Source of the DNA: Armatimonadia bacterium
Lineage (GTDB): Bacteria > Armatimonadota > Zipacnadia > Zipacnadales > UBA11051
DNA: 56,233 nucleotides
Direction: 5' to 3'
Assembly: GCA_039683575.1 (NCBI GenBank)
Contig: JBDKRC010000083.1
Location: 1-56,233 of the forward strand
Of the stretch, positions 15,991 through 43,427 are shown piece by piece. The translations under genes were made by a program, and so were the position numbers. Positions within the stretch are counted from its first letter, which is position 1, and each line of letters begins with the position of its first letter. The notes beneath the pieces are model-generated. The model ran no database searches and was not told the origin of the DNA. It worked only from the letters and a program-made list of their open reading frames with translations.

Positions 15991-16159
15991 GTGCTCTGCG
16001 CCTGGATGCGGGTGCCCTGGCGTGCGGCCACACAGATGGCCAGGTCACCCATGCCTCTGTGCACACTATATTGAGATCGTTGAGCCGGCTTTCGCAGGTA
16101 AAGACAAGAATAGTGGCGAACAGTTGAACATTGCGGCAATACCTGGAGGTACTCGACTA

Positions 16160-20416: not shown

Positions 20417-21457
20417 TCAAGCTTCATTACTGTATTCACTCCCCGCTTCCGGCCTCGCGCGCTCGCGGAAGAGCCAGTGCACCCCGGCGCTGTAGGCAAT
20501 CACCACTGGCAGGCCGAGAATGGCTGTGATCAGCATTGCGGTCAAGGCGAGATGGGAGGCTGAGGCGTTGTATGCGGTGAGGCTGAGCGTCGGATCCTGG
20601 GCTGGAAGCAGGGTTGGGTACAGGGCTACGGCCGAACTGCCGAAGAGGAGCAGGATGCTTACCGAAGAGGCGGCGAAGGCGACTGCATCGCGCTCGCCCA
20701 GGTGCGCAGCGCCGGCAACCGCTACCGCGAGGAGTGCGAGCATCGGGACTGCCCACAGGGCAGGCATACCTACGTAATTCGCGACGAGCCTCGGCGAGTT
20801 ACAGGCCAGAACGGCAAAGGCCGCTATCAACAGCGGGAAGGTGATGATCCACGTGTCGCGACCCCAGCGTCTGGCCCGGCGGCGCACCTCGCCTGTGGTC
20901 TTCAGCCTGATCCAGATCGCCCCGTGCAGAGTCACTGCCAGGAACAACAGGATGGTCACCAGCAGTGCCATTGGACTGAAGACAGCGCCAAACGCGAAAC
21001 GCAGCTCGCCGTCTGCGTCGAGCGGCAGCCCCGCTAGCACGTTACCCAGGAGCAGGCCCAGCGAGACTACTGCGGCCGTGCTGCTGACGCCGAAGATGAC
21101 ATCCCACACCTGGCGTGGGCGGGGCCGATGCTCCTTCTGAGCGTACTCCACCGACACCGTGCGTAGAATCAGCGCTAGCAGCAGGATGATCAGCAGGGGG
21201 TATAGGCCGCTTAGCAGCGCCGCGTATAGTGGCGGGAACGCGGCAAAGGTGGCCCCGCCGGCGGTGACCAGCCAGACTTGATTGCCATCCCAAAACGGGG
21301 CGATGGCAGTGAGCAGCTGGGTGCGTTCCTGACCACGGCGGGCCAAGAGATACCAGATGCCTGTGCCGAGGTCATAGCCATCGAGCACCACGAACATCGC
21401 CAGCAGGAAGAGCAGCAAAACGTACCAGACTATCTGCAGGGCGGCGAGCGTGATCAT
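20417..21457 (-). CDS. cydB: Cytochrome bd quinol oxidase subunit II
   Basis: VLDGYDLG, PFWDGNQVWLV and LTAYNAS; ATGA overlap with cydA. Confidence 0.93.
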   Translation of the reverse strand: MITLAALQIVWYVLLLFLLAMFVVLDGYDLGTGIWYLLARRGQERTQLLTAIAPFWDGNQVWLVTAGGATFAAFPPLYAALLSGLYPLLIILLLALILRTVSVEYAQKEHRPRPRQVWDVIFGVSSTAAVVSLGLLLGNVLAGLPLDADGELRFAFGAVFSPMALLVTILLFLAVTLHGAIWIRLKTTGEVRRRARRWGRDTWIITFPLLIAAFAVLACNSPRLVANYVGMPALWAVPMLALLAVAVAGAAHLGERDAVAFAASSVSILLLFGSSAVALYPTLLPAQDPTLSLTAYNASASHLALTAMLITAILGLPVVIAYSAGVHWLFRERARPEAGSEYSNEA

Positions 21458-22779
21458 GAGACATCCGCTTCTTCCAGAACTGGCGCGTCGTGTACTGCCC
21501 GGCGGATGAATACCAGCCACACGATGAACAGCAACAGGTACACCAGGCTAAGCACGATCATCGACACCCAGATATGCCCTGCCGGTACCACCTTCGACAC
21601 GCCCTCGCTGGTGCGGTAGAGGTTGTAGACGAGCCAAGGTTGCCGCCCCACCTCGGCGGCCATCCAACCCAGTTCATTCGCCAGGAAGGGCAGAGGGGTC
21701 GTGATTAACGCCAGCCAGAGGTACCACCGGTGCTTTGCCAGCCGGCGGCGCCAGAGCAGGTAGACGCCAAGGCCGCTGAAGGCGATGAAGTAGAAGCCCA
21801 GCGCGATCATCATGTGGAACGGAAAGAACATGAGCGGGACCGGTGGCCAGTTTTCACGTGGGAAGCTGTGGAGACCCTTCACGAGGTGATCGCGCCGCAG
21901 GCCCAGCAGGAGACTCAGGCCAGAGGGAATGCGAATGTCGTAGATCAGCCGGTCGTGCGCCATGTCTGGGATGCCGAAAATCAGCGCTGGAGCGTGGGTC
22001 TGGTCATCAAAGATGCCCTCGAAGGCAGCCATTTTGACGGGCTGCGTGGCGCCCACCTGGATCGCGTGGTAGTGGCCGAAGGCGAGTTGACCGAGCGACG
22101 TCAGCAGGCCGAGGATCAGTGCGAGACCAGCCGAGTACTGCGCCAGTTTCGAGCTTTTGCCCTTCAGCATCAGCCAGGCACTGACCCCGAGCATGAAGAG
22201 GCAGCCGGTCAGGATAGCGCCCGTGGTCGTGTGCAGAAAGCGCGGGATCATCGAGGGGCTGAAGAGGGCGAGCAGATAGTTGTCCAATTCGGCGCGGCCA
22301 TTGCGGAGGGCGTATCCTGCCGGCGTCTGCATCCAGGAGTTGGCAGCGAGGATCCAAAAGGCGGACAGAACCGCGCCGCCAGCCACGCCGATGGACACCA
22401 GCAGGTAGAAGAACGGCTTCATGCGATCATAGCCAAACAGGAGCACGTAGAGCAGGGTAGATTCCAGAAAGAAAGCGAAAATCCCCTCACTTGCGAGGAA
22501 AGGGCCGAAGACGTCGCCGACAAAGCGCGAGTAGCTGGCCCAGTTGGTTCCAAACTGGAACTCCATCGTGAGCCCGGTGGCCGCTCCGACGGCGAAGGTA
22601 AGGGCGGTGAGTCCGGTCCAGAAACGAGCCATCCGCTGATAGGAGGCGTCGCCTGTGCGCCAGTAGACGAACAGCAACCACACTACGAGCACCGCCAGCC
22701 CGATGCTAAGCGGCGCGGAAATGAAATGGAAGCCAATCGTCAGCGCAAACTGTAGTCTCGCCAGCAGTACGGTATCCAT
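21454..22779 (-). CDS. cydA: Cytochrome bd quinol oxidase subunit I (short Q-loop type)
   Basis: ARLQFA..GFH, EFQFGTNW, EGIFAFFLES, NSWMQTP, RFLH, QPVKMAAFEG and GWMAAEVGRQPW. Confidence 0.95.
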   Translation of the reverse strand: MDTVLLARLQFALTIGFHFISAPLSIGLAVLVVWLLFVYWRTGDASYQRMARFWTGLTALTFAVGAATGLTMEFQFGTNWASYSRFVGDVFGPFLASEGIFAFFLESTLLYVLLFGYDRMKPFFYLLVSIGVAGGAVLSAFWILAANSWMQTPAGYALRNGRAELDNYLLALFSPSMIPRFLHTTTGAILTGCLFMLGVSAWLMLKGKSSKLAQYSAGLALILGLLTSLGQLAFGHYHAIQVGATQPVKMAAFEGIFDDQTHAPALIFGIPDMAHDRLIYDIRIPSGLSLLLGLRRDHLVKGLHSFPRENWPPVPLMFFPFHMMIALGFYFIAFSGLGVYLLWRRRLAKHRWYLWLALITTPLPFLANELGWMAAEVGRQPWLVYNLYRTSEGVSKVVPAGHIWVSMIVLSLVYLLLFIVWLVFIRRAVHDAPVLEEADVS

Positions 22780-22796
22780 GACAGGTCAGCATGTCG

Positions 22797-24245
22797 TCAG
22801 CGGAAGCTGGTCGCAACCTCCCCGATTATAGCCAACAGTGGCGACGGGTACACGCCCAGCCACAGGATGATCAGGGCGAGTGCCACCAGTGCCACAGCAG
22901 TTGCTGCCGCAGCCAGGGCTGGAGTGCTGTGCCCTGGCACTGTTGACGCTTCTGCTCCCTCATCAGTGCGCGCATAGAGTATCGACGCCGCTCGCAGGTA
23001 GTAATACAGGCTGACGGTGCTGTTGACGATCAGCACACCTACCAAGGCCCACAGATGCGCGCCAACCCCCGCGGTCACCAGTACAAACTTACCGAGAAAC
23101 CCTGCCGTCAGCGGCAGGCCTGCCAGCGACAGCAGCGCCATCGTCAGCAGCCCCGCCAGCCATGGCCTCCGCCAGGCCAGACCCTGGTATTCCACCAGCA
23201 GTGCAGGCTCCTCGCGCTCATTCGACAGAGCGGTGATGACACCGAAAGCGGCCAGGGTGGCTGCGAAATAGGTGACGAGGTAGAAGCTCGCCACCGAGGC
23301 TCCGACACGGCCAGTCAGTAGCACCGCGATCAGCAGGTAGCCCATTTGAGCGATCGAGGAGTACGCCAGCAGGCGCTTGAGGTCGGGCTGCTTGAGCGCG
23401 AGCAGGTTTCCGACAGTCATTGAAAGTATGGCGCCCCAGGCGACCACCTGCCCCAGTGAGTGGTCCGCGCTGAGGTCAAGTACGGCCGTATACCGCAGCA
23501 GCAGGGCCAGAATTGCGCCTTTGGAGACCGTGGCGATGAACGCACTGACTGGTGCAGGCGCGCCTTCGTAGACGTCCGGCGTCCACAGATGGAAGGGGAC
23601 GACTGCTAATTTGAAGCCGATGCCGACGAAGATCAGCAGGAGACCACCGAGCAAGACCGGTGTCAGGGGCTGCGACAGCGGGGCCGCCAGATCGGCCAAA
23701 GCCATGGTCCCCAGTTGGCTGTAGATGAGCGCCATTCCGAACAACAGGAATGAGGAGGTCAGACCGGCCAGGACGAGATACTTGATGGCAGCCTCGACAC
23801 CTGGCGCGGGCGCAGCCCGGAAGGCGATCAGCGCGTAGAGCGAGATGCTGAGCATTTCGAGGCCCAGGAAGAAGGAAGCGAAGTGAGTGCTGGCGACGAG
23901 TGTCATACCGCCAAGTGTCGCCAACAGCAGCAGCAGATAGTACTCCTCGCGCTGCGTCTCATGGTGCTGCAGGTAGCCATAGCCAAGGAGTGTTAGTGCC
24001 AGGGCGACGAGCAGGAACAGACCGTGGTAGAACAGAGCGTAGTGATCCAGTATGAGCAGCGGTGCGAACGGGCGATCCGGCAGGCGCCAGGCCACAAGCA
24101 CCAGCAGCAGGGCGCTCAGGAGCCCAATCAGCGTGACATAGACCGTCATGCGGTGGCTGCGACAGGCGCCGATGACCAGCATAACGGCTACGGCGGTGGT
24201 GGCGGTCACGATCATCGGCGCGGCCATGTTGCCCAGAGGGTTCAC
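22797..24245 (-). CDS. nuoN: NADH-quinone oxidoreductase subunit N
   Basis: EAAIKY, GFKLAVVPFHLWTPDVYEGAP and KRLLAYSSIAQMGY; GTGA overlap with nuoM. Confidence 0.93.
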   Translation of the reverse strand: MNPLGNMAAPMIVTATTAVAVMLVIGACRSHRMTVYVTLIGLLSALLLVLVAWRLPDRPFAPLLILDHYALFYHGLFLLVALALTLLGYGYLQHHETQREEYYLLLLLATLGGMTLVASTHFASFFLGLEMLSISLYALIAFRAAPAPGVEAAIKYLVLAGLTSSFLLFGMALIYSQLGTMALADLAAPLSQPLTPVLLGGLLLIFVGIGFKLAVVPFHLWTPDVYEGAPAPVSAFIATVSKGAILALLLRYTAVLDLSADHSLGQVVAWGAILSMTVGNLLALKQPDLKRLLAYSSIAQMGYLLIAVLLTGRVGASVASFYLVTYFAATLAAFGVITALSNEREEPALLVEYQGLAWRRPWLAGLLTMALLSLAGLPLTAGFLGKFVLVTAGVGAHLWALVGVLIVNSTVSLYYYLRAASILYARTDEGAEASTVPGHSTPALAAAATAVALVALALIILWLGVYPSPLLAIIGEVATSFR

Positions 24246-25711
24246 GGCGCACCTCCCGGACCCAGCAGGGCGTCGAGAGCCTGCGCGGAGATGTTCAGGA
24301 AAGCCTGCGGAGCGAGCCCGAGACATAGGATGGCAAGGGCGAGAGCGGCCACAATTGCGAGTTCGGACGCGCGCAGATCGGGAATTGCCAACGGGTCGCG
24401 CGAGGGACCATACAGGACCCGGTCCAGCAGCCAGAGAGAGTAAACCAGAGCCAGTATCAAACCGGCAGCAGCGACTACGGCAAAGGATACGCTGAGGTGA
24501 TAGGTCCCGAGCAGCGTCAGGAACTCGCCGATGAAGTTACCCATCCCGGGCAGGCCGAGCGCCGCCATGGAGAAGAACATCATCGCCGCGCCCAGTCGCG
24601 GCACCACCCGCCACAGGCCGCCCATCGCCGCCATGTCGCGCGTGCCGAGGTGGTGCTGCAGGATGCCTGCCAGCACAAACAACGCGCCAGTGCTGACCCC
24701 GTGGCTGAGCATCTGGATAACCGCGCCCTGCAGGGCCAGCGCGTTCCAGGTGAAGACCCCGAGCAGGACAAAGCCGAGATGGCTGACGCTGGTGTACGCG
24801 ATGAGACGCTTCATGTCGGTCTGGGCGAACGCCATGTGCGCCCCGTAGAGAATGCCGATCACCGCCAGCACCAGTGCCGGCACGCTGAAAGCGCGTGCCG
24901 CCTCCGGAAAGAGCGGGACGACGAAGCGGATGAGCCCATAGCCGCCGGTCTTCAGCAACAGTCCCGCCAGCACGACGCTGCCGGCCGTTGGGGCTTGAGT
25001 ATGAGCATCGGGCAACCAGGTATGCAGCGGGACGACCGGGAGTTTGACGGCAAAGGCAACGAGGAAGCCCAGCATCATCAACATCCCGGAGAGCGGGGCC
25101 AGCGGCGTGCTGAGCAGTTGCTGATACTCGAAAGTTGCCACTCCCGTTTGTTGCAGGTGCGTGAAGAAGAGTGCGACGATCGCCACGAGCATCAGCAGGC
25201 CGCTGAGCTGCGTGAACAGGAAGAATTTGATAGCGGCGTAGTGGCGGCGCTCATGCCCCCACAGGTCGATCAGGAAGTACATCGGGATCAGCATCAGCTC
25301 CCAGAAGAAGTAGAACAGGAAGAGGTCCATCGCCAGAAAGACGCCCGTCACCCCGGCGAGGACCCACAGCAGGTTGAGGTGAAACAGGCCGACCCGCTCG
25401 TCGATCTGGCTCCACGAGATTCCGACGGAGACGATCCCGAGCAGGCCGGTCAGCAGGATCAGCAGCAGACTGAGGCCGTCGATGGTGAGGCTGAAGCTGA
25501 TGCCAAGCTGCGGGATCCACCGGGCCTGGAGGGCCTGCAGCCACGGGTCGGCAGCGGACGTGCTGGAGGGCCAGAGGGTGATCGCGAGGGACAGTTGCGC
25601 GGTCATCGCCACCAGCGCCAGCACCCGCGCCGCTAGCGCGCTGAAGCGGCTGAGCGCGAAGCTCAGGATGCCGCCGACCAGCGGGATTGCGATCAGCCAT
25701 ACGAGTGTCAT
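24242..25711 (-). CDS. nuoM: NADH-quinone oxidoreductase subunit M
   Basis: FFWELMLIP, VKLPVVPLHTWLPDAH, LLKTGGYG and KRLIAYTSVSHLG. Confidence 0.95.
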   Translation of the reverse strand: MTLVWLIAIPLVGGILSFALSRFSALAARVLALVAMTAQLSLAITLWPSSTSAADPWLQALQARWIPQLGISFSLTIDGLSLLLILLTGLLGIVSVGISWSQIDERVGLFHLNLLWVLAGVTGVFLAMDLFLFYFFWELMLIPMYFLIDLWGHERRHYAAIKFFLFTQLSGLLMLVAIVALFFTHLQQTGVATFEYQQLLSTPLAPLSGMLMMLGFLVAFAVKLPVVPLHTWLPDAHTQAPTAGSVVLAGLLLKTGGYGLIRFVVPLFPEAARAFSVPALVLAVIGILYGAHMAFAQTDMKRLIAYTSVSHLGFVLLGVFTWNALALQGAVIQMLSHGVSTGALFVLAGILQHHLGTRDMAAMGGLWRVVPRLGAAMMFFSMAALGLPGMGNFIGEFLTLLGTYHLSVSFAVVAAAGLILALVYSLWLLDRVLYGPSRDPLAIPDLRASELAIVAALALAILCLGLAPQAFLNISAQALDALLGPGGAP

Positions 25712-27582
25712 CGCAGCACCACGACCGCCAGCAGCACCAGCGTCCCGACAGCAGCCGCGAGGGCATAGGAACGCACGCGGCCCGTCTGGCTGAGGGAGAG
25801 CAGGCGGTGAAGAGCAATAGTGACCGCCGCCAAACCCGTGTAGAAGGCGTCAACGAAGTCGGCACGGTTCAGACGCGCGAGATAGACCCACGGGCGGACG
25901 AAGAGCCGGCTATAGAGCCAGTCGAAGCCCCAGCCGACGAACCAGAAGCGATGCAGAACCCGAATTGCCGGTGCGGTTCCGAGGTTCTCTGCCCAGCGCG
26001 GCTGCCTAAGATACAGCAGCGCGGCGATGGCGAGCCCCGCGAGCGTCGCTATGATCGGCAGCACCTGCAATGAGGCGGCGGCACCACCCTCGCCGGGCGC
26101 GGCGCTGGCTGTCGAGAGGAAGCTGCCGCGCAGCAGGGCGGTGAAGGCGCCGGTACCTCCGTGCGGGAGGTTGAGGTACCCGGCGACGACTGCGAGCGTG
26201 GCGAGCACCACGAGGGGCACGGCCGTCACCAGGCCCTGGCGCCGCCGTGGCTCCAGTCTGCGCTCGCCGAAGAACACCAGAAACACCATGCGGAAGGCAT
26301 AGACGGAGGTCAGCAGAGCCCCGATCAGGCCGGCCAGCCAAAAGCCCACGTTGCTCCCATACGCGGCGTTAAGAATGGCGTCCTTGCTGAAAAAGCCGGC
26401 CGTCACCCACGGAATCGCGGACAGCGACGCTGCCCCAATCAGGAAGGTCCAGAAGGCCAAGGGGAAATCGCGCCGCAAGCCGCCCATCTTGAGGATGTTG
26501 TGCTCTTCCTCAAGGCCCTGGATGACCACGCCGCCGCTGAGGAAAAGCAGCGACTTGAAGAAGGCGTGGGTGAAGAGATGGAATATTGCAGCCGACCAGG
26601 CGCCGACGCCGAGCGCGAGAAGCATGTAGCCGACCTGGCTCATGGTTGAGTAAGCCAGCACGCGCTTGAGATCCCATTGCGTCAGCGCGCTGCACGCCGC
26701 CAGCAGCAACGTCGCGGCACCCACGAGCGCCACCAGCCACTGCACGATTGGAGCCAGTTCGAAAACCACGTGCATCCGCGCGATCAGGTATACACCGGCA
26801 GTGACCATCGTTGCGGCATGAATGAGGGCGCTGACTGGCGTGGGGCCAGCCATGGCGTCCGGCAACCACGTCTGCAGCGGAAGCTGCGCCGATTTGCCGA
26901 CCGCGCCGCCAAGCAGTAAGGCTGCCGCGGCGACTGCCAGCGAACTCCCAACCGGCCATTGCAGGCTCGCCCGCTGCATCAGCTCCTGAATCTGCAGCGT
27001 GCCAAGTTGGGTGAAGATCAGCAGCAGACCGATGAGCAGCGCCGTATCGCCGACGCGCGTGATGAGGAAGGCTTTGAAGGCAGCAGTCACATTCCTGCGC
27101 TCGCGATACCAAAAGCCAATGAGTAGGTAGCTGCACAGGCCCACGCCCTCCCAGCCGAGGTAGAGCAACAACAGGTTGTCGGCGAGGACCAGCGTCAGCA
27201 TGGAGCCGACAAACAGATTCATGAAGCAGAAGAAGCGCGCGTAGCCGTCATCTTCGGCCATGAACTGGGCCGAGTAGAGCAGAATCAGGGCTCCCACGAA
27301 CGTGACGACGGCACACATGACCAGTGAGAGCGGGTCAAGGTAGAAGGCGATGGACGGCTGCAGTTCGCCAAGGCTCAGCCACCTGTATAGCACCTGCGTC
27401 TGCCCCTGTAGGGAGCCGCTCAGAAAGTGGCTACCGGCCCACGCCGTCAGCACGAACGAAGCAGCGGTGGCGCCGACGCCGATGATCGCCACGACCACAC
27501 GAGGCAGGCGCGAGCCCGCCAGCCCCAGCAGGAGGCTGGCCGCCAGAGGCAGGAGTGGGATGAGGTACAGCGGGCTCGCCAT
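25708..27582 (-). CDS. nuoL: NADH-quinone oxidoreductase subunit L
   Basis: GWEGVGLCSYLLIGFW, GKSAQLPLQTWLPDAMAGPTPVSALIHAATMV and HAFFK. Confidence 0.95.
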   Translation of the reverse strand: MASPLYLIPLLPLAASLLLGLAGSRLPRVVVAIIGVGATAASFVLTAWAGSHFLSGSLQGQTQVLYRWLSLGELQPSIAFYLDPLSLVMCAVVTFVGALILLYSAQFMAEDDGYARFFCFMNLFVGSMLTLVLADNLLLLYLGWEGVGLCSYLLIGFWYRERRNVTAAFKAFLITRVGDTALLIGLLLIFTQLGTLQIQELMQRASLQWPVGSSLAVAAAALLLGGAVGKSAQLPLQTWLPDAMAGPTPVSALIHAATMVTAGVYLIARMHVVFELAPIVQWLVALVGAATLLLAACSALTQWDLKRVLAYSTMSQVGYMLLALGVGAWSAAIFHLFTHAFFKSLLFLSGGVVIQGLEEEHNILKMGGLRRDFPLAFWTFLIGAASLSAIPWVTAGFFSKDAILNAAYGSNVGFWLAGLIGALLTSVYAFRMVFLVFFGERRLEPRRRQGLVTAVPLVVLATLAVVAGYLNLPHGGTGAFTALLRGSFLSTASAAPGEGGAAASLQVLPIIATLAGLAIAALLYLRQPRWAENLGTAPAIRVLHRFWFVGWGFDWLYSRLFVRPWVYLARLNRADFVDAFYTGLAAVTIALHRLLSLSQTGRVRSYALAAAVGTLVLLAVVVLR

Positions 27583-27583
27583 G

Positions 27584-27895
27584 CTAACCACGCATCCTGC
27601 TGATCAGGTCGGTGTCGAGGGTGCCGAAATGATGCCGCGCCGCCAGCGCCAGCGCCAGCCCTAAAGCAACCTCCGAGCCGGTGACTGCTAAGATGAACAG
27701 GAACATGATCTGCCCGTCCGCCTGCTGCCAGCGCTGCCCGGCCACCACGAAGGCCAGCCCGGCGGCGTTGAACATGATCTCCAGCGACATCAGCACGAAG
27801 ATGAGATTGCGCCGCATCAGGACGCCGATCAGCCCCAGCAGGAACAACACCGTGGCGAGCATCAGCCCAAACTGAAGGGAGGCCGTCCCTGTCAT
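27584..27895 (-). CDS. nuoK: NADH-quinone oxidoreductase subunit K
   Basis: RRNLIFVLMSLEIMFN and SEVALGLAL. Confidence 0.93.
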   Translation of the reverse strand: MTGTASLQFGLMLATVLFLLGLIGVLMRRNLIFVLMSLEIMFNAAGLAFVVAGQRWQQADGQIMFLFILAVTGSEVALGLALALAARHHFGTLDTDLISRMRG

Positions 27896-28407
27896 CTGCC
27901 GCGCTCCTCGGGAACTGCCCGGTACCGCCGTCCGATGTGATAGGCCCCGACGAGACCGCTGAGCAACACAAATGAGGCGAGTTCGACGGCAAGGCCGTAG
28001 ACGCTGAACAACCGAATGCCGACTTGGCGCGGCCCGATCATTGCCACGCCAAAGTTGGCCGTCGCCGGCACCAGAATCAGATAGGCAAGCTCCAGCAGCA
28101 GCAAGAGCGCCAGCAGGCCCGGCAGCACCCAGATCGGGCCCTGGAAGATCAGGCGCTCGTGATCCACAATCTCCGAACCGAGGTTGAACATCATCACCAC
28201 GAAGACGAACAGGACCATAATCGCCCCGGCGTAGATAATGACTTCCAGCGCCGCCACGAACGGCGCGCCGAGCAGGAAGAACACGACCGCCACCGCCAGG
28301 AGCGACACGACCAGGTAGAGCAGCGCATGAACCGCGTTGAGCCGCGTGATCACCAGGATGGTGGACACGACGGCAATGGCGGCGGACAGGTGTAGCAGGA
28401 TGGTCAT
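27892..28407 (-). CDS. nuoJ: NADH-quinone oxidoreductase subunit J
   Basis: NAVHALLYL and LEVIIYAGAIMVLFVFVVMM. Confidence 0.93.
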   Translation of the reverse strand: MTILLHLSAAIAVVSTILVITRLNAVHALLYLVVSLLAVAVVFFLLGAPFVAALEVIIYAGAIMVLFVFVVMMFNLGSEIVDHERLIFQGPIWVLPGLLALLLLLELAYLILVPATANFGVAMIGPRQVGIRLFSVYGLAVELASFVLLSGLVGAYHIGRRYRAVPEERGR

Positions 28408-28429
28408 GATCGTCTACGGCAGCGGACTG

Positions 28430-35134: not shown

Positions 35135-35137
35135 CGT

Positions 35138-36412
35138 CTACGTGCGGTACGGGCAGCGGTGATCGCTGATGTGGCGGTCAAAATCGTCACGGAAGTGCAA
35201 CAGCGCGCTCTCGATGGGCGCCATCGCGCCGGGCGCGAGCGCGCAGAAGGTGAGATTCATCCGCACCTGCTTCACATGGTGCTCCAGAATCTCCATATCA
35301 GACGGCTGGCCCTTGCCAGCTTCGATTGCGGCCAGAGTGCGCATTACCCACGGCAGCCCCTCCCGGCAGGGGGTGCACCAGCCGCACGACTCGCGCGCGA
35401 AAAACGCCGTCATTCCATACAGCAGGTCCACCGGGCACGTCCGGTCATCGAGCACCGTGATCGTGCCGGTCCCGAGGCGGCTGTGGATGGCGTCCATGCT
35501 GTCAAAGTCCATCGGCGTGCCCAGGTCCTTCTCGGTCACGAAGGAGGTGGAAGCGCCGCCTGGGAGCAGCGCGCGGAATTTGTAGCCCTCCGCCATGCCG
35601 CCCGCATAGTGCTCCAGAATCTGCTCGATAGGCATCCCCATGGGCAGTTCCCATAGTCCTGGCTTTTGCACATGTCCGCTGGCCCCGTAGAGTTTGGTCC
35701 CGGCGTCGTCTGTTAACGCGAGGCCTTTGAACCACTGCGGGCCGCGCTGGACGATATGCGGGACGCAGCAGACGGTCTCGACGTTGTTGACGACGGTGGG
35801 CTTGCCCAAAAGACCGATCGTCTGTGGGTAGGGAGGCTTGGCGCGGGGGATGGCTCGTTTGCCCTCAAGCGCGTCGATCAGGCCTTCTTCCTCGCCGCAC
35901 ATATAGCGCCCGGCGCTGGCGTGAATGTGCAGCTTCAGCTTGTACGGGCTGCCCATAGCGCTATCGCCGAGTATCCCCGCCTGCTCCGCCTCCTGTAGCG
36001 CCGCCGCGAGGCGCTGGTACGCCAGCCGGTACTCCCAGCGCAGGAAGATGAAGGCGATGTCCGCCTGAATTGCATATGAGGAGATGATTGCGCCCTCGAT
36101 GACTTGATGCGGGTCCCCCTCCAGCAGCCAGCGGTCCTTCATCGTCCCCGGTTCCATCTCGTCGGCGTTGACGCAGAAGTACTTCGGGTGCCGCGCTTGG
36201 TCGCTCATGTCGGTGAAGGACCACTTCTGGCCCGTCGGAAAGCCCGCCCCGCCCCTGCCGCGTAGTCCCGAATCCGAAACCGCCTTCTGGACTTCCTGTG
36301 GGCTCAGGCTAAGCGCCTGGCGCAGCGCCTCATAGCCGCCAGCCTGGCGGTACTCGTCAAGGCTCAGCGGCTCGCGGTTCGGCTTGATGCGGCCAGTCAG
36401 CGGCGTCTCCAC
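35138..36412 (-). CDS. nuoF: NADH-quinone oxidoreductase subunit F
   Basis: GLRGRGGAGFPTG, NADEMEPG, YMCGEE and ESCGWCTPCREG..C. Confidence 0.95.
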   Translation of the reverse strand: METPLTGRIKPNREPLSLDEYRQAGGYEALRQALSLSPQEVQKAVSDSGLRGRGGAGFPTGQKWSFTDMSDQARHPKYFCVNADEMEPGTMKDRWLLEGDPHQVIEGAIISSYAIQADIAFIFLRWEYRLAYQRLAAALQEAEQAGILGDSAMGSPYKLKLHIHASAGRYMCGEEEGLIDALEGKRAIPRAKPPYPQTIGLLGKPTVVNNVETVCCVPHIVQRGPQWFKGLALTDDAGTKLYGASGHVQKPGLWELPMGMPIEQILEHYAGGMAEGYKFRALLPGGASTSFVTEKDLGTPMDFDSMDAIHSRLGTGTITVLDDRTCPVDLLYGMTAFFARESCGWCTPCREGLPWVMRTLAAIEAGKGQPSDMEILEHHVKQVRMNLTFCALAPGAMAPIESALLHFRDDFDRHISDHRCPYRT

Positions 36413-36424
36413 TATTTCACCTGG

Positions 36425-36889
36425 CTACGGGTATTGCTCGAGTATCTGCGCAATCTTCTCCGCGGTGAGCTGAACGTGCAGATCGTCATCCACCATCATC
36501 ACCGGGGCCAGATCGCACGCCCCCAGGCACCCATTTGGCAAGAGCGTGAAGCGATCGTCGGCGGTGGTTTGACCCATCCCGATGCCCAGTTGCTGCTCCA
36601 GCGACTCCCGCACCGGGTTGTAGCCCATGATCCAGCAACTGACGCTGTCGCAGATCAGGATGACGTGCCGGCCCACGGGCTCTCGGTAGATGAGGTTGTA
36701 GAAGGTTGCGACCGTGTCGATTTCGGCGGGGTCGAGCCCCAGGACCCGCGCGAGATCACGCACGTGCTCATCCGACACCCAGCGGTGCTGCTGCTGGACG
36801 ATCCGCAACGCGCCCACAATGGCCCCCCGTGGGTCCTCGTACTTGTCGCGCTCCGCCTGGAGGTCGCGAATCTCGCTATCGCTAAGCAT
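36425..36889 (-). CDS. nuoE: NADH-quinone oxidoreductase subunit E
   Basis: VATFY, CDSVSC and CLGACDLAP (2Fe-2S cluster N1a). Confidence 0.95.
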   Translation of the reverse strand: MLSDSEIRDLQAERDKYEDPRGAIVGALRIVQQQHRWVSDEHVRDLARVLGLDPAEIDTVATFYNLIYREPVGRHVILICDSVSCWIMGYNPVRESLEQQLGIGMGQTTADDRFTLLPNGCLGACDLAPVMMVDDDLHVQLTAEKIAQILEQYP

Positions 36890-36892
36890 GGC

Positions 36893-38644
36893 TCACCGAT
36901 CAACGTCTGCAAGGACGAAATCAAGGCTGCCGAGGATGGACGCGAGGTCTGGGATCATCAGCCCGCGTCCCAGCATCGGCACCATCTGGATGTGCGGAAA
37001 TGATGGCGTGCGGATGCGCGTGCGGTAGGACATGACATCCCCATCACTCACGAGGTAGTACGTATTGTTACCCTTGGCCCCCTCAACCCCGACGGCGGCC
37101 TCTCCCGCGGGCACGACCGGCCCCCAGGAGACGTGAACGAAGTGGTCGATGAGGGTCTCGATATCCTGCATCGTGTTGTGCTCTTTGAGCGGCGGGGTGG
37201 CAGCCGGATGCAGCGACTTGTAGGTTCCGGACGGCATATGGTCGAGGCATTGTTCGATGATCCGCAGGCTCTGGCGCATCTCTTCCATGTGAACGACAGC
37301 GCGGTCATAGGCGTCGCCGCGCTCGCCGGTGGGGATATCGAATTCGAACTGCTCATAGCCGCCATAGGGGCGATTCTTGCGCCAGTCCCACTGCTTGCCG
37401 CAAGCCCGCAGCACGGGCCCGGTGGCGCCCCACTCAATCGCCTGCTCGGTTGTCAGCGCCCCAATCCCCACCGTGCGCGCGCGGAAGAGCCTGTTGAGCA
37501 TCACCATCCGTCGGTACTCAGTCAGGCGCTTGTCCATGCGCTTGAGATAAGTGCGAACCAGCGGGTCGTAGCCTTCCGGCAAGTCCTGCGCCACGCCGCC
37601 GATGCGGAACCATCCTGGGTGCATTCGCGCGCCGGTGATCGCCTCCACGATGTCAAAGGCATGCTCACGGTCATTGAACATGTAGAAGACTGGGGAGAGC
37701 ATGCCCAGGTCCTGCGCGAAGGTCCCCATGAAGACGAGGTGGCTGATGATCCGGAACAACTCCGCCAGCATGATGCGGATTACCCGCGCGCGGTCCGGCA
37801 CCTGAATCCCCGCCAGCGCCTCGACGGCCATGACGTAGGGGAAGTTGTTGATCACCCCCGCCAGGTAGTCAACGCGGTCGGTGTAAGGAATGTATGTGTG
37901 CCAGCTCTGCCGCTCACCCATCTTTTCGGCGCCGCGGTGGTGGAAGCCGATATCGGGGAAGATGTCGACGATCTCCTGCCCCCGGAGCTTGAGCACCAGC
38001 CTCAGTACGCCGTGGGTGGACGGGTGATGTGGGCCCATGTTGAGGTACAGGTAGTCAAAATCCGCCTCACGCTTCTCGCCACCAAGGAGCCGCGGGTCGA
38101 ACTCCATCATCTGCTCGAATTCCGAGGCCTTGGTCTCTGGCTGATGATAGATGCCCATATCGGTCGCTCGCGCCGGGTGCTCTTTGCGCAGCGGGTGGCC
38201 TTCCCACCATGGCGGCATCAGAATGCGCCGCAAGTCGGGGTGGCCCGTGAAGCCGATCCCGAACATGTCGAAGACTTCCCGCTCATACCAGTTGGCACAG
38301 GGCCACAGGCTCGTGATCGAGGGCGCCGAGGGCGCTTCACCCGTAAGCGCCACCTTCAGACGCAGGTCCTGATTGCGGTCATACGAAAGCAGGTGGTAGA
38401 CGAGTGTGAAGTCAGCGGGCGGCTGGTCGGGGCGGTGGAGGCGCTGCCGCTCGTCAATGGCAGTGAGGTCGTAAAGCGTACGGTAGGGGCTGGGAAGGGT
38501 TTCCTTCAGGTGGCGGAGCAGTGACTCGACAATCCGCGGCTGAACCCAGACGGTGGGGATGCCATCGGCGGTCAGTTGCGGGCGCACGTCGACCGGACCG
38601 AACGCGGCCTGAAGCTCCTTTACCACCTCCAGCTCCTCAACCAT
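36893..38644 (-). CDS. nuoCD: NADH-quinone oxidoreductase fused subunit C/D
   Basis: [11 protein letters not shown] and GHPLRK (C part); [28 protein letters not shown] and ADVDR (D part). Confidence 0.95.
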
Positions 38645-38671
38645 GTCGAAGTCCTGTTCCCCTGCAAAGCG

Positions 38672-39292
38672 TCAGATTTGGTCCGGTGGCTTCAGAAGTG
38701 TCTGTGCGGTACGCTCCGCGCGCCGTTCGTCTCGCTGTGAGGGCAACTTTGGCCGCACTACCCCTTGCGGGCCAACTACCCAACTCAGCGGGCGCTGCTC
38801 GTCACCCACAAGCTCGCGCAGCATCAGCAGCCCGTGCATGAATGCCTCGGGGCTGGGCGGGCAGCCCTGGATATACACATCAACCGGGAGGAAGGTGTCC
38901 ACTCCCTGCACGACGCTGTAAATGTCGTACATCCCGCCGGAGTTCGCGCACGATCCCATCGAAATGACCCAGCGCGGGGCCATCATCTGCTCGTAGAGCT
39001 GCTGGATGACCGGCGCCATCTTAACGAAGACGGTGCCGGAGATCACAATGAGATCGGCTTCCCGAGGCGTCGAGCGGATGACCTCCGCGCCGAAGCGGGC
39101 GATATCGTAGCGGCTGGTGAGGCTGGTCGCCATCTCGACATAGCAGCACGACAGGCCGAAGTTGAAGGGCCACAGCGAGTTCTTGCGGCCCCACGATACG
39201 AGCCGCTGGAGCGTCGTGAAGATGACGTTCTCGCCGATCAGCCGCGAGAGCGGGCCATTGGTCAGTTTACCGCCGGGTTCTGCTTCAGACAT
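38672..39292 (-). CDS. nuoB: NADH-quinone oxidoreductase subunit B
   Basis: [20 protein letters not shown] and GCPP. Confidence 0.95.
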
Positions 39293-39707
39293 GGTGCTGA
39301 TCACCGTCCGGCGCGGCCCGACCCAGATGCTGCGCCGACGTGCCCCACTCCAGTGCGCCGATGCCCCACAGATAGCCCAAAGCCGCCAGCAGCACGCCGA
39401 TGAAGATCGAAATCTGCCCGTACGCCGCCCAACCCGTCTCGCGAGCCGATACGGCCCAGGTGTAGATGAACACGGCCTCCAGATCGAAGACTACGAAGAA
39501 CATCGCCATCAGGTAGTACTCGGCGGGCACCCGCGCCCGGGCACTGCCGGTGGGGATCATTCCGCCTTCGTACGGCGTCCCCGTGGCGCGCTGCTTGTGG
39601 CGCTGTCCGAGCAGCCATGGCACAAAGATCATCGCGGCTGCCAGCAACACCACTAATACGGTATATAGCACCAGCGGCCAGATCAGGGGCGCCTGCGCGT
39701 CCGTCAT
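39285..39707 (-). CDS. nuoA: NADH-quinone oxidoreductase subunit A
   Basis: [19 protein letters not shown] and GALEW; ATGA overlap with the zwf stop. Confidence 0.93.
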
Positions 39708-41263
39708 GCCTTTTCACCCCCGGGACGTGCCTCAGGCGGCTCGCACACATCCGGATCGTTGAGCGGAGTGGGCATCTGCCATGCCCGCCCGTCCCGCGCT
39801 ATTAACGCCTCGCCGGTCTCTGGCCCCCACGTGCCGGCGGCATAGTTCGGGAAGTCCTCGGCTACCTCGGACCAGCCCTCGATGATGGGCATGACGATGG
39901 CCCACGAGGCCTCGACCTGGTCCCGGCGCTTGAAGAGCGTGGCATCCCCAATCATCGCGTCCGCCAGCAGCGTCTCGTACGCCTGCGCGGGCTCACGGTG
40001 GAAGGCCTGCTTGTAACTGAACTGCATATCCACGGGGCTGAGCTTCATCCCCTGTCCCGGACGCTTGGCATAGAACCGCAGCCGGATGCCTTCCTCCGGA
40101 TCAATGTAGAGCACCAGCCGGTTCATCTGATAGCTGCCGATTGCGGAGGGGGGGAACGCCTGGTGCGGCGCGGGGCGGAAGTTGATGCTGACCTCCGACA
40201 CTGTCTGCGCCATCCGTTTGCCCGTGCGCAGGTAGAACGGCACGTCCTGCCAGCGCCAGTTATCGATGAAGAGCTTGACGGCCGCGTAGGTCTCGGTGTC
40301 AGACTGCGGATCGACACCTGGCTCCTGGCGATACCCCGGCACCTTCTCGCCCTCGATCCAACCCGGGCCGTACTGCCCGCGGGCGGTGAAGTCATGCACT
40401 TGCGCCACCTCGATCGGCCGCACAGCCCGCAGAACTTCCACTTTCTTGTCGCGGATGGTATCGGCCTCAAAAGCGACCGGGGCGTCCATGGCGGTCAGGC
40501 ACATCACCTGCATCAGATGGTTCTCGATCATGTCCCGCAAGGCGCCGGTTTTCTCGTAGTACGGCCCCCGGTGCTCCACGCCCAGCTTCTCAGGCATGTT
40601 GATCTGCACGTGGTCCACGTAGCGACGGTCCCAGATGGGCTCGAAGATGCCATTGGCAAAGCGCAGGGCGAGGATGTTTTGGACGGTCTCCTTGCCCAGG
40701 AAGTGGTCGATGCGGAAGATCTGGGATTCATCGAACGCTGTTGCCAGCTTGCGATTGAGCTCGGCCGCGGAATTGGCATCCCAACCAAAGGGCTTCTCCA
40801 GTACTATCCTGCTCTTCTGGCGGTCCTGCGCCAGCCCGGCGGCCTTTAGCTGTTCAATCAGGCCCTCGACCACCGAGGGCGGCGTCGCCTGGTAGAACAG
40901 TCGGACCGCGTTGCCCTGCCACTGCTGGTTCAGTTCGTCCAGCTTCTGACTTATCTTCTCGTACAGCTTCCTGTCAGTCAGGTCCGCGACGACATAGTCG
41001 TTGATGCACTTGAGAAATGCCTGCCACTGCTTCGTCTCGGTCTTGCCAAACCTCGAAAACTCGTCAGTGCCGTCGCGCAACTGTCTGATGAAGTCTTTCG
41101 GTGACATTTCCCGAGCGTCGGTGCCAATCAGCGCGAACTTGTCAGGTAGTCCGCCGTCAAGGTACAGGTCATACAGGGCGGGCACTAACTTGCGCTTAGT
41201 GAGGTCGCCACCGGCGCCGAATATCACCAGTACAACGGGGTCAGGGTACTGCAGCTTCTCCAA
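39704..41263 (-). CDS. zwf: Glucose-6-phosphate 1-dehydrogenase
   Basis: IFGAGGDL, EKPFG, RIDHFLGKE, GALRDMIENH and WQDVPFYLRTGKR. TTG start follows GAGGGAGG. Confidence 0.95.
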   Translation of the reverse strand: MEKLQYPDPVVLVIFGAGGDLTKRKLVPALYDLYLDGGLPDKFALIGTDAREMSPKDFIRQLRDGTDEFSRFGKTETKQWQAFLKCINDYVVADLTDRKLYEKISQKLDELNQQWQGNAVRLFYQATPPSVVEGLIEQLKAAGLAQDRQKSRIVLEKPFGWDANSAAELNRKLATAFDESQIFRIDHFLGKETVQNILALRFANGIFEPIWDRRYVDHVQINMPEKLGVEHRGPYYEKTGALRDMIENHLMQVMCLTAMDAPVAFEADTIRDKKVEVLRAVRPIEVAQVHDFTARGQYGPGWIEGEKVPGYRQEPGVDPQSDTETYAAVKLFIDNWRWQDVPFYLRTGKRMAQTVSEVSINFRPAPHQAFPPSAIGSYQMNRLVLYIDPEEGIRLRFYAKRPGQGMKLSPVDMQFSYKQAFHREPAQAYETLLADAMIGDATLFKRRDQVEASWAIVMPIIEGWSEVAEDFPNYAAGTWGPETGEALIARDGRAWQMPTPLNDPDVCEPPEARPGGEKA

Positions 41264-41291
41264 AACGCCGCCCTCCCTCACTTGCCTCGCG

Positions 41292-42791
41292 CTAATCGGC
41301 CTTCTGGCCCGGTCCCTCGTTGTTGGCGCGCGCCTCTCTGCCGGCCAAAGCTCCGGCACCGACCAGGGGCTCGCCCTCCTCCCACGCGGTGTGGAAATGC
41401 CCCTTCTTGTCCGTCCGTTCGTAGGTGTGAGCCCCGAAATAGTCGCGCTGCGCAGCGATGAGGTTGTCCGGCAGCCAATTGCTACGCAAGGTATCGTAGT
41501 ATGCCAGGGCAGTCATGAAACCCGGGGCGGGGAGGCCGCTACGGCCAGCCACCAGTGCCACCTCCCGCAGATCGTCCTGTCGCTCGTTCAGTTCCGCACT
41601 GATGACCGGCGAAAGCAGCAGGCTGAGTAGGTCTGGCTGCTCGGCGTAGGCCTGCCTGACCTTTCCCAGAAGCTTCGCCCGGATAATGCATCCGCCGCGC
41701 CAGATACGGGCGACGTGCTCAAGATCCAGCCCGTAGTCATAGGCTTCGGAGGCGACACGAAGCTGGTCCATGCCGTTCGCGTATGAGATCAGGAACCCCG
41801 CGTAGAGAGCAGCACCGAGCTTGTTCAGGAACTCCAGGCGGTCACATTCCAGACGTCCGCGCGGCCCCTTGAGAACCTGGCTGGCCAGTTGCCGCTGCGG
41901 TAACATCATCGACAAGTCGCGCATTTCCACCGCGGCGTCGATGATCGGGATCGCCTGGTGTAGCTCCATGGCATCCTGAGACGCCCACATACCAGTGCCT
42001 TTTTGATTGGCGACGTCGCGGATGACGTCAATCAGCCGCTGCCCTGTGCCTTCGTCGCTTCGGCAGAAGATGTTGGAGGTGACCTCGACCAGGTAACCAC
42101 CGAGGTCACCCTCATTCCAACCCGCGTAGACGTCATGAAGTTCATCATCGTTCAGGCCCAGCCCGCGCTTCATGAGGTCGTACCCCTCGGCAATCAGTTG
42201 CATCAGAGCGTACTCGATGCCATTGTGCATCATCTTCACGTAGTGACCGGCCGAACCAGGGCCGAGGTACGTCACGCAGGGCTCATCGTCGACTTTGGCC
42301 GCCGCCGCCTCCAGCATCGGCCGCACGCGGTCATAGGCCTGCCGCGGGCCGCCGGGCATGATACTCGGCCCCTGGCGAGCGCCTTCCTCGCCGCCTGAGA
42401 TGCCAACACCGAGGAAGTGCAGCCCCTTCTCCGACAGCGCCTTCTCACGCAGATTGGTGTCGCTGAAGTGTGAATTGCCCCCGTCGATGATGATGTCCCC
42501 TTGCTGTAGATGTGGCAGCAGGTCGCGGATCACCGCATCAACCGGTGGCCCCGCAGGCACCAGCATCATCACCACCCGGGGCTTTTTGAGCAGCTTTATC
42601 AGCCCTTCCAGGCTGTCCACCGCGTCAATTCGGCGGGTCTCGCTGTGATCGCCAAGTCCCTTGAGCTTGCTCGGATCCTTGTCGTATCCGGCCACCGCAT
42701 ATCCATGATCTTCGAGATTCAGTGACAAATTCAGGCCCATGACGCCCAGGCCAATCATCCCCAGATCAACGCTCTGTTCTTCTCCCATCAC
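41292..42791 (-). CDS. gnd: 6-phosphogluconate dehydrogenase, decarboxylating (long-chain)
   Basis: GLGVMG, IDGGNS, SGGEEGA, VKMMHNGIEY, KGTG, WRGGCIIR and QRDYFGAHTY. Confidence 0.95.
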   Translation of the reverse strand: MMGEEQSVDLGMIGLGVMGLNLSLNLEDHGYAVAGYDKDPSKLKGLGDHSETRRIDAVDSLEGLIKLLKKPRVVMMLVPAGPPVDAVIRDLLPHLQQGDIIIDGGNSHFSDTNLREKALSEKGLHFLGVGISGGEEGARQGPSIMPGGPRQAYDRVRPMLEAAAAKVDDEPCVTYLGPGSAGHYVKMMHNGIEYALMQLIAEGYDLMKRGLGLNDDELHDVYAGWNEGDLGGYLVEVTSNIFCRSDEGTGQRLIDVIRDVANQKGTGMWASQDAMELHQAIPIIDAAVEMRDLSMMLPQRQLASQVLKGPRGRLECDRLEFLNKLGAALYAGFLISYANGMDQLRVASEAYDYGLDLEHVARIWRGGCIIRAKLLGKVRQAYAEQPDLLSLLLSPVISAELNERQDDLREVALVAGRSGLPAPGFMTALAYYDTLRSNWLPDNLIAAQRDYFGAHTYERTDKKGHFHTAWEEGEPLVGAGALAGREARANNEGPGQKAD

Positions 42792-42818
42792 ACACTCCCC
42801 AGCGGTCCGGCTGCGGCG

Positions 42819-43427
42819 TTAGCGCAGACCAAGCTCTGCCAGCGCCGCCCGCGTGCTTTCGAGATCGACATGGCGCACCGCCGTCAATCCGAACTCCCGC
42901 GCCACCTCAACGAACATCTCCCGATCCTCCAGATAGACTGATTCCGAGAGGCTGGCCTGCGCCACGTCAACCGCGATCCGGTAGATGTCGAAGTCGGGCT
43001 TGCGGTAATGGACGAAGCACGAGGCAACGAAGATATCGATCAATTCGCGCAGGTTGAACGCCTTCACCCGATGCTCAACCAACTCGCGAGGGTCATTGGT
43101 AACGGCCACCACCTGCAGTCGGTGCCGCACTTTGAGTTCGCGCACCAGGCCAATAACGTCTTCATGTGGCTGGGATTGGTCGAACATGAACTTCGCAAAG
43201 TCCTCGGGCGTGAAAGACTGTTCGGTATAGAAGATCACGCGTCTCAGGTACGTCGTCAGATCCGTCTTTCCCGCCTCCCACGCGCCAAAAGCCAGACTGT
43301 GTCGCTCCTCCACCTCGTCGTGGTCCAAATGGAAGGCCTCGATGGCACGAGCGCGTGCGTGGCGGTCCCACCCATTGGTTAGCAGCACGCCACCAAGGTC
43401 CACGAAGAGGGTCTTGATTGTCTGCAT
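42819..43427 (-). CDS. HAD-family phosphatase (YihX-like)
   Basis: FVDLGGVLL, TN, RKPD and YLEDR motifs; GGAGG RBS. Confidence 0.88.
   Translation of the reverse strand: MQTIKTLFVDLGGVLLTNGWDRHARARAIEAFHLDHDEVEERHSLAFGAWEAGKTDLTTYLRRVIFYTEQSFTPEDFAKFMFDQSQPHEDVIGLVRELKVRHRLQVVAVTNDPRELVEHRVKAFNLRELIDIFVASCFVHYRKPDFDIYRIAVDVAQASLSESVYLEDREMFVEVAREFGLTAVRHVDLESTRAALAELGLR

Follow-up and report, generated by a model that had tools for sequence, protein, structure and literature searches.

The window analyzed here is the whole of contig JBDKRC010000083.1, a stretch of 56,233 nucleotides (nt) from the genome of an Armatimonadia bacterium (Armatimonadota), which is available as a 6.2-Mb, 352-contig metagenome assembly (GCA_039683575.1) with a completeness of 96%. 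Between positions 43427 and 20417, the minus strand of this contig carries 18 co-oriented open reading frames (ORFs), each with a clear Pfam assignment. They encode, in this order, a hydrolase of the HAD superfamily, the sugar-phosphate dehydrogenases Gnd and Zwf, the complex I subunits NuoA, NuoB, NuoCD (fused), NuoE, and NuoF, a qNor-NuoG ORF that joins a quinol-dependent nitric oxide (NO) reductase (qNor) to the complex I subunit NuoG, the subunits NuoH through NuoN, and the cytochrome bd subunits CydA and CydB. The qNor-NuoG ORF is the most unusual element of the block. The individual features, all on the minus strand, are as follows:

42819..43427, minus strand: first gene, HAD-superfamily hydrolase of 202 aa (PF00702, E=1.2e-13)
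41292..42791, minus strand: gnd, long-form 6-phosphogluconate dehydrogenase (PF00393, E=3.4e-110; NF006765, 620 bits, cut-off 413)
39704..41263, minus strand: zwf, glucose-6-phosphate dehydrogenase (TIGR00871, 597 bits, cut-off 400)
39285..39707, minus strand: nuoA (PF00507)
38672..39304, minus strand: nuoB (PF01058)
36893..38644, minus strand: nuoCD, fused as in E. coli-type operons (NF008728, 925 bits, cut-off 840; PF00329 and PF00346)
36425..36889, minus strand: nuoE (PF01257)
35138..36412, minus strand: nuoF (PF01512, PF10589)
32828..35119, minus strand: qNor part of the fusion, residues 6-769 of the fusion protein (P0001), without a stop codon of its own (PF22085, E=1.3e-51; PF00115, E=1.4e-48)
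32642..32827, minus strand: spacer of 62 codons leading from qNor to NuoG (sequence between the two domains)
29912..32641, minus strand: NuoG part of the fusion, residues 832-1740 (TIGR01973, 583.5 bits, cut-off 470)
28938..29915, minus strand: nuoH (PF00146)
28430..28957, minus strand: nuoI (Fer4 families)
27892..28407, minus strand: nuoJ (PF00499)
27584..27895, minus strand: nuoK (PF00420)
25708..27591, minus strand: nuoL (PF00361, PF00662)
24242..25711, minus strand: nuoM (PF00361)
22797..24245, minus strand: nuoN (PF00361)
21454..22779, minus strand: cydA, short form of 441 aa (PF01654, E=7e-149)
20417..21457, minus strand: cydB, ATG at 21457 (TIGR00203, 222 bits, cut-off 117, match from ORF residue 22)

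The tight packing described in an earlier note on this DNA is borne out by the junctions, which were read from the sequence using the likeliest starts: no gap within the block exceeds 30 nt, and seven junctions overlap in addition to the two with a shared ATGA. As that note had claimed, the zwf stop and the nuoA start share an ATGA (39704-39707), as do those of cydA and cydB (21454-21457), and 17 nt separate the nuoN stop from the cydA ATG. The other gaps measure 27 nt (HAD-gnd), 28 nt (gnd-zwf), 27 nt (nuoB-nuoCD), 3 nt (nuoCD-nuoE), 12 nt (nuoE-nuoF), 3-18 nt (nuoF to the fusion ORF), and 22 nt (nuoI-nuoJ); nuoA-nuoB and nuoH-nuoI overlap by 8-20 nt, nuoK-nuoL by 8 nt, and nuoJ-nuoK, nuoL-nuoM, and nuoM-nuoN by 4 nt each, and the fusion ORF meets nuoH in a GTGA overlap. 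The HAD ATG is preceded by the Shine-Dalgarno sequence GGAGGTG, the likely start of zwf is a TTG at 41263 behind the Shine-Dalgarno sequence GGGAGGG (the frame is open up to 41359), and that of nuoN is a GTG at 24245, placed in a GTGA overlap behind GGGAGG (open up to 24326). The claim that no internal terminator is obvious holds as well. In scans that used consensus sequences only and covered promoters of the sigma-70 type, positions 19500-39400 contained 12 terminator-like sites against 11.4 expected from shuffled sequences and 0 promoter-like sites against 3.1 expected, and positions 39000-44000 of the minus strand contained neither kind of site.

Co-oriented, separated by gaps too short for promoters, and free of evident internal terminators, the 18 ORFs probably form one operon, which would be read as a single transcript. 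The ATGA and GTGA overlaps and the 17-nt nuoN-cydA gap are too tight to accommodate a conventional promoter and its leader; together with the chance-level number of terminator-like sites and an RNA-library contig that bridges nuoF and qNor (see below), they make it unlikely that the block consists of several head-to-tail transcription units (e.g., HAD-gnd-zwf, nuo, and cydAB) with internal promoters, whose close spacing would reflect mere compaction. Such units would be easier to accept given that other genomes have other orders (nuoN-zwf-cydA and zwf-nuoA), so that these genes are expressible from different positions, that the promoter consensus was of a single type, and that the RNA comparison is confined to 29500-36800, which lies between the zwf-nuoA and nuoN-cydA junctions. 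As to its parts, the block contains an E. coli-type set of 13 nuo genes, A to N with a fused nuoCD, whose order is broken only by the qNor coding region, and the adjacent CydA (PF01654, 496 bits) and CydB (PF02322, 284 bits) make up a cytochrome bd. Both this oxidase and qNor belong to quinol-dependent families, in agreement with the earlier note.

One feature had escaped that note: qNor is no separate gene and is translationally fused to nuoG in one ORF of 1740 aa (35134-29912) that comprises, in a single frame, a complete qNOR, the 62-residue spacer, and a complete NuoG. In the qNOR part, Pfam assigns residues 53-227 to the NorB cytochrome c-like domain and residues 292-738 to the COX1 core, and an alignment with the structure in Protein Data Bank (PDB) entry 3AYF extends over residues 37-756 (E=3.5e-168). 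The motifs SWHLQ, HLWVEG, GTGHHWYW, and NHAHGA align to His355, His508/Glu512, His559/560, and His651/653 of 3AYF (positions counted from the alignment), which we take to be the ligands of heme b, heme b3, and FeB, so that by alignment the qNOR set of His, His-His, His-x-His, and Glu is complete. The N-terminal cytochrome c-like domain has no heme c site, as in other qNORs, and no CXXCH motif occurs anywhere in the 1740 residues. Hydropathy peaks are confined to residues 24-759. The nearest stand-alone qNors, which are 67% identical and 760-766 aa long, end about 10 residues past the motif YWRAWRR; the window protein does not end as a stand-alone polypeptide of about 750-800 residues and continues for 971 more residues into NuoG. 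The 14-helix topology of qNORs puts the C terminus in the cytoplasm, which is the side of NuoG.

The NuoG part has an equivalog-level match above the cut-off and all of its Fe-S ligands, the Cys and His columns for the 2Fe-2S cluster and the three 4Fe-4S clusters being invariant in 10 sequences. What it lacks is a start of its own directly behind nuoF: where nine relatives begin with M-x-TIY, the window reads ...SPDTPTIYVD, and no ATG, GTG, or TTG is found there. The spacer consists mostly of Pro, Ala, Thr, Ser, and Gly (41 of 62 residues) and includes a perfect 17-nt palindrome, CCGGCCTTAAAGGCCGG, at 32660-32676 of the minus strand. No similar DNA or peptide was detected in the 168 loci used for comparison or elsewhere in the genome, and the qNor part of the junction query had no match in 40 relatives. 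Judged by its composition, the spacer looks like untranslated DNA that has turned coding.

The join itself is real DNA and is in frame in two strains. Over positions 29500-36800, the window was compared with Logan contigs of a DNA run (X1) and of three metatranscriptome runs from the same study (X2, X3, and X6), all labeled as wastewater metagenome. The X1 contigs cover this range without gaps and with about 1% differences. One of them, the 703-nt record 3 (32554-33256; 9 substitutions, 0 gaps), encompasses the last qNor helices, the full spacer, and the first 29 NuoG codons, and another, record 5 (33511-35890), crosses the nuoF/qNor junction. It is therefore most improbable that the fusion stems from a chimeric contig or from a missed base concealing a qNor stop codon. 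The assembly is a metagenome assembly in 352 contigs and the join is absent from the other records searched; against this stand the separately assembled X1 contigs of a strain that is about 1% divergent, which cross both junctions ungapped, the 3-18-nt spacing of nuoF and qNor, and the insufficiency of a single insertion or deletion, given that qNor and NuoG share one frame and that NuoG has no start codon of its own.

The 56 X1 differences comprise 33 that are listed in the fusion ORF, 2 in nuoH, and 21 further, unlisted ones. The 33 are divided into 16 synonymous and 6 nonsynonymous changes in NuoG, 6 and 1 in qNor, and 1 and 3 in the spacer, where the four changes (I>L, T>P, L>S, and K=K) introduce no stop codon. 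Purifying selection thus acts on the qNor and NuoG halves, and none is visible on the spacer. Two of the four spacer differences lie in the palindrome and break it. At position 31911 of the minus strand (residue 1075 of the fusion), X1 has a Glu where the window and nine NuoG relatives have a Gly; this Glu comes from one contig with a depth of about 6.5 and may be an error. Contigs of the RNA libraries X2, X3, and X6 lie in nuoG, qNor, nuoF, and nuoE and are mostly 100% identical to the window. One of these (X2 record 13, 34978-35259) bridges nuoF and qNor, the only junction in the compared range that is bridged by an RNA-library contig. The fused protein is presumably made, with both halves working.

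Unusual features are also found in the two sugar-phosphate dehydrogenases. The Gnd scores above the cut-off of an NADP-dependent family (NF006765), though without the Asn-Arg-Thr/Ser triad of the NADP type: it has D-K-D where N-R-T or N-R-L are found, in ungapped alignment, in the proteins from PDB entries 2P4Q, 2W8Z, and 2IYO. According to one study, N32, R33, and T34 of 6-phosphogluconate dehydrogenase (6PGDH) hold the 2'-phosphate of NADP, NAD-preferring 6PGDHs have an Asp in the first of these positions, and the N32D replacement alone increases the Km for NADP 460-fold (PMC5090862). The Zwf has GAGGDL and GT-D-A-R, which align ungapped with GT-A-R-Q of the Leuconostoc enzyme (1DPG-type chains) and with GF-A-R-R of 9EMM. 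By this alignment, it has no equivalents of Lys18 and Arg50 of the E. coli enzyme, which mark NADP-specific Zwfs, and carries an Asp just before the Arg50 position; an Arg follows one position later, which makes a one-residue shift of the alignment possible. Most glucose-6-phosphate dehydrogenases (G6PDHs) and 6PGDHs are NADP-dependent (PMC4518329), and loss of the R50-type Arg has been tied to loosened or NAD-directed specificity of G6PDH (PMC4807051 and PMC8546961). In the latter paper, Zwfs that lack this Arg are regarded as NAD-specific and are reported mostly from genomes that have multiple zwf copies (PMC8546961).

The genome studied here has two other Zwfs with canonical sequences (GV-A-R and AA-G-R) and another Gnd, a short form with S-R-T. 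As these copies, on contigs C128 and C210, keep the NADP-type residues, those of the operon are the odd ones. The Asp is present in seven of the eight nuo-linked Zwfs, i.e., in the window and in six of the seven other loci discussed below (L050 is the exception), and the nuo-linked Gnds of L084 and L082 have an Asp as well. The operon Zwf and Gnd are predicted, from these residues, to prefer NAD+ and yield NADH, and the absence of the signature for the NADP 2'-phosphate fits a flow of their electrons to complex I.

In enterobacteria, zwf is a stress-induced source of NADPH, and cytochrome bd is NO tolerant. It is conceivable, on these grounds, that the block is a stress regulon, with Zwf and Gnd as sources of NADPH for repair under nitrosative and oxidative stress, cytochrome bd and qNor as NO-detoxifying enzymes, and complex I as a mere neighbor. 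The NCBIfam names of both dehydrogenases, which are those of NADP-dependent equivalogs, fit this explanation, and so does the lack of nirK and nirS among the genes found in the genome, so that NO would have to come from outside, that is, from neighbors. We consider it quite unlikely, given that the residues for the NADP 2'-phosphate are replaced in both operon enzymes and kept in the other copies of the genome, that the same Asp signature is found in nuo-adjacent Zwfs of other phyla, and that full pentose-phosphate sets adjoin nuo and qNor in L148 (see below).

Linkage of these partners in other genomes was assessed in the 80 best NuoG-related loci, one genome per species, onto which the window proteins were mapped. 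In these loci, NuoG is 49-58% identical to that of the window (up to 76% in one segment) and the other nuo products are mostly 40-76% identical. The exact orders for which the earlier note had proposed a synteny search did not turn up: gnd-zwf-nuoA is missing from all 54 loci that extend 2 kb or more upstream of nuoA, and nuoN-cydA from all 44 that extend 2 kb or more downstream of nuoN. What does recur is a location of zwf, gnd, HAD, or cydA beside this type of nuo operon, in records titled as Nitrospirota, Planctomycetota, Chloroflexota, Actinomycetota, and a deltaproteobacterium. The zwf gene is located upstream of nuoA and co-oriented with it in 3 of the 54 loci (L012, L057, and L083; 42-43% identity) and directly behind nuoN in 4 of the 44 (L027, L050, L082, and L084). 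The latter Zwfs, with 52-60% identity, are closer to the operon Zwf than are the paralogs from its own genome (41-47%). In L082 and L084, cydA comes next after zwf, and a PGI-like gene lies before gnd, which in L084 directly adjoins nuoA. An ORF of 212 aa in L082 (4932-5570) combines 47 N-terminal residues of the Gnd-type NAD-binding domain (with YDKN) with a complete NuoA and, from its sequence, seems to be what is left of a gnd that once preceded nuoA and was deleted. The L050 locus shows a tandem pair of nuoF-like stretches (7428-9988) and nuo genes with several frame breaks, which may represent a real duplication or errors in the record.

Relatives of the HAD protein (49-55% identity) are encoded beside nuo or qNor clusters in L010, L021, L050, L064, and L148. 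Nuo-like genes occur within 6 kb in 4 of 80 metagenome qNor loci, and in 3 of these 4 (L148, L158, and L160) they are of the E. coli type. L148 (1-11772) carries nuoA (divergent) and the genes for UbiA, DoxDA, DUF2231, qNor, cytochrome b5-DUF2231, transketolase, RpiB, transaldolase, and a HAD protein that is 50% identical to that of the window; L158 (1-11428) has nuoF to nuoA (divergent), UbiA, qNor, and transketolase. The recurrence of the partners in varying order, albeit in small counts, argues for function over shared descent.

Elsewhere in the genome, COX1, nirK, and nirS were sought as respiratory end enzymes. The operon qNor is the only COX1-family match and the operon cydA the only cydA found in this 96% complete assembly; neither nirK nor nirS was found in it. 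The check for a second nuo locus suggested in the earlier note gave a positive result: nuoA, B, C/D, H, I, K, and L are located at C223:48716-55707 and nuoM and nuoN at C2:14664-17546, with 33-49% identity to the operon copies and without adjacent nuoE, nuoF, or nuoG. Four NuoE/NuoF-like pairs are encoded on other contigs (C12, C22, C49, and C302), three of them (C12, C49, and C302) near a NuoG-like gene. In 40 relatives, cydA was found in 6 genomes and COX1 in 5; all 6 relatives with this type of nuo operon have cydA and/or COX1.

The explanation that we favor, with a probability of roughly 55%, is that the block is a co-expressed respiratory cassette leading from sugar phosphate via NADH, complex I, and quinol to O2 or NO and containing a real, young fusion, both halves of which are under selection. 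Glucose-6-phosphate and 6-phosphogluconate would be oxidized by the NAD+-type Zwf and Gnd, the resulting NADH by the E. coli-type 13-gene complex I, and the quinol would be reoxidized by cytochrome bd, which reduces O2, or by qNor, which reduces NO to N2O. The fusion would have arisen when a qNor gene inserted between nuoF and nuoG, its stop codon was lost, read-through of about 62 formerly noncoding codons happened by chance to be in frame with nuoG, and nuoG lost its own start. In the product, a flexible linker rich in Pro would connect a membrane-bound NO reductase of 14 helices with the cytoplasmic NuoG, a tether that could bring quinol production and use together in one place. The earlier note had seen in the block a self-contained electron path at work at oxic-anoxic interfaces; gene content, packing, quinol-dependent families, and the signature of the donor enzymes support such a path, and its use at these interfaces is conjectural.

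A further proposal, put forward as a doubtful one, is that the 190-kDa qNor-NuoG polypeptide is built into complex I, forming an NADH:NO (with cytochrome bd, also NADH:O2) oxidoreductase supercomplex that is fed by an NAD-linked pentose-phosphate branch. Solved qNORs are reported to be active as dimers (PMC6713497, PMC13031933); were the fused polypeptide built in, such dimerization may pair two complexes.

A number of observations weigh against the respiratory cassette with its fusion. The fusion is a singleton in protein searches that covered 5.8 billion and 1.84 billion proteins. With residues 560-1110 as a query against proteins of 957-3045 aa, the window protein is the only one to span the join in the best 120 of 908 matches, the rest being plain NuoGs; an exhaustive phmmer search of the 1.84 billion representatives with residues 500-1100 yielded, in the best 150, no other protein matching both halves; and a search restricted to qNOR relatives of more than 1389 aa, which is weak evidence, returned the window protein alone. 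In 75 related loci, the nuoF-nuoG gap of 9-475 nt never has room for a qNor, and none of 76 complete stand-alone qNors extends more than 27 codons beyond the aligned end. No RNA contig falls on the spacer region (32428-32915), which is a hole in the contig cover and no sign of absence, DNA can contaminate RNA libraries, and X1 possibly comes from the same sample as the assembly, making it a second strain and perhaps not a second site. The NuoG N terminus is distant from the membrane in known complex I structures, so that the tether would have to be well extended. An ATG at residue 800 and a GTG at residue 835 are possible internal starts. On the donor side, 4 of the 8 nuo-linked Zwfs retain the Arg, and a lactonase gene is absent from the operon. 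Of the order-level relatives with this nuo type, 4 have at least 5.8 kb upstream of nuoA, and none of these 4 carries zwf, gnd, or HAD there. Last, the spacer has a GC content at third codon positions of 0.58, compared to 0.77 (standard deviation, 0.064) for 62-codon windows of the same ORF, which puts it in the lowest 0.06%, and 24% of base-shuffled spacers are free of stop codons in a given frame.

The last two figures make a neutral read-through accident plausible. The fusion could be an evolutionary accident without benefit, a young read-through in which either the clumsy fused protein is tolerated or a free NuoG is made from an internal start, the rest of the block being ordinary enzymes. 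With a one-in-three chance of the right frame, about 24% x 1/3 of random spacers would yield an open join in frame; three of the four strain differences in the spacer change a residue, its palindrome resembles a former hairpin that is broken in the other strain, and the second complex I locus could cover a loss of function. What makes such an accident somewhat unlikely, in our view, is that both flanking domains have mostly synonymous differences between the two join-carrying strains, that a free NuoG, its own start being gone, would need an unconventional start (no Shine-Dalgarno sequence precedes a candidate one), and that decay of the operon is improbable given that its cydAB and qNor are the only such enzymes of the genome.

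Several other features of the window deserve mention. The product of the first gene of the block matched a single NCBIfam model, TIGR02247, below its cut-off, and has no paralog in its own genome at E<1e-8. Its motif I reads DLGGV, without the second Asp, which is the general acid in typical HAD phosphatases. Upstream of the HAD gene, and divergent from it, an IS21 pair occupies 43638-45412 of the plus strand: an istA of 330 aa, which has the Mu-transposase C-terminal domain alone and looks 5'-truncated, is followed by a complete istB and a 41-nt inverted repeat (45420-45524). Repeats flanking the block were considered as a sign of insertion and discarded, being short chance matches alone. A test for a genomic island in same-genus genomes was uninformative: the left-flank gene is of a family with 20-40 copies per genome and about 60% identical, and the right-flank gene had no match. 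On the other side of the block lie the gene for a DUF6785/DUF6784 protein (16983-19448, minus strand), with 22-40 matches per genome in the four closest relatives searched (three belong to the same genus and one to the same family), and that for a DUF1559/N-methyl protein (15959-16846, plus strand), whose family is represented by more than 150 matches in this genome and is absent from 14 control genomes. Control by FNR/CRP-type boxes was rejected: the window has 12 matches where 8.2 are expected, and the 210 nt upstream of HAD contain none. No Rfam families or tRNAs were detected in the window. Positions 527-13424 encode two large, secreted-looking, carbohydrate-active proteins (an F5/8 type C protein of 1238 aa and one of 1407 aa with heparinase II/III, alginate lyase, and CBM9 domains), a GntR/LacI-type regulator, and a 1053-aa protein similar to NAD-glutamate dehydrogenase.

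If the respiratory cassette is real, the sole O2- or NO-reducing chain found in this genome would be carried on a single 23-kb block, in a lineage in which most relatives searched have neither cytochrome bd nor a heme-copper enzyme. A donor-to-acceptor chain located on one block beside the remnant of an insertion sequence suggests a one-step gain of (micro)aerobic, NO-tolerant respiration. All the enzymes come from known families; three traits depart from the textbook, namely the joining of a terminal reductase and a core complex I subunit in one reading frame, the NAD-type signature of the nuo-linked Zwf and Gnd, and the placement of the whole chain on one block. Should the fusion assemble, it would provide a natural experiment on a quinol user tethered to a quinol producer and would bear on the long-running debate on substrate channeling in respiratory supercomplexes. 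The occurrence of NAD-type Zwf and Gnd beside this type of complex I in several phyla points to a catabolic, NADH-yielding pentose-phosphate route wired to respiration. Were the fusion an accident that the cell tolerates, what would be left is an operon that is uncommon but otherwise ordinary. In the literature searched (supplements were outside its scope), no paper was found on zwf and gnd within nuo operons or on a qNor-NuoG fusion.

Compared with E. coli-type nuo operons, the block has the same order of nuoA, B, CD, E, F, G, and H to N and differs in having the 2.3-kb qNor region between nuoF and nuoG, fused to the latter, as well as zwf, gnd, and HAD upstream and cydAB downstream. A similar arrangement is seen in one order-level relative (G021, locus L179 on C89, 1-7500), where the same nuo type is co-oriented directly behind quinol-oxidizing and terminal enzymes. 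These are an alternative complex III (molybdopterin/Fe-S subunit, ActD, and multiheme cytochrome c) and a cbb3 oxidase (CcoN and a fused CcoO/P), i.e., cytochrome c-dependent partners, and, unlike the block, that locus has neither sugar-phosphate dehydrogenases nor the fusion. The cytochrome bd genes of the block are placed directly behind nuoN, and its CydA, at 441 aa, is short and scores below the cut-offs of the equivalogs of E. coli CydA and AppC. With respect to known NAD-preferring or dual G6PDHs and 6PGDHs, the difference lies in the incorporation of these genes into a complex I operon.

The fusion protein shares with the stand-alone qNORs of known structure (PDB entries 3AYF, 6QQ5, and 6FWF) the N-terminal helix, the heme-free cytochrome c-like domain, and the 12-helix core; unlike the fusion, those enzymes are 750-800 residues long and terminate some 10 residues beyond the last helix. 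Other N-terminally extended NuoGs do exist: the NuoG N terminus is preceded by the C-terminal Fe-S domain of NuoF in P0242 and P0358 and by a Uma2 nuclease domain in P0311. Some of these extensions may be artefacts of gene calling. Taken together, they mark the N terminus of NuoG as a place of insertions and read-through, and in none of them, unlike in the qNor-NuoG protein, is the partner a membrane enzyme.

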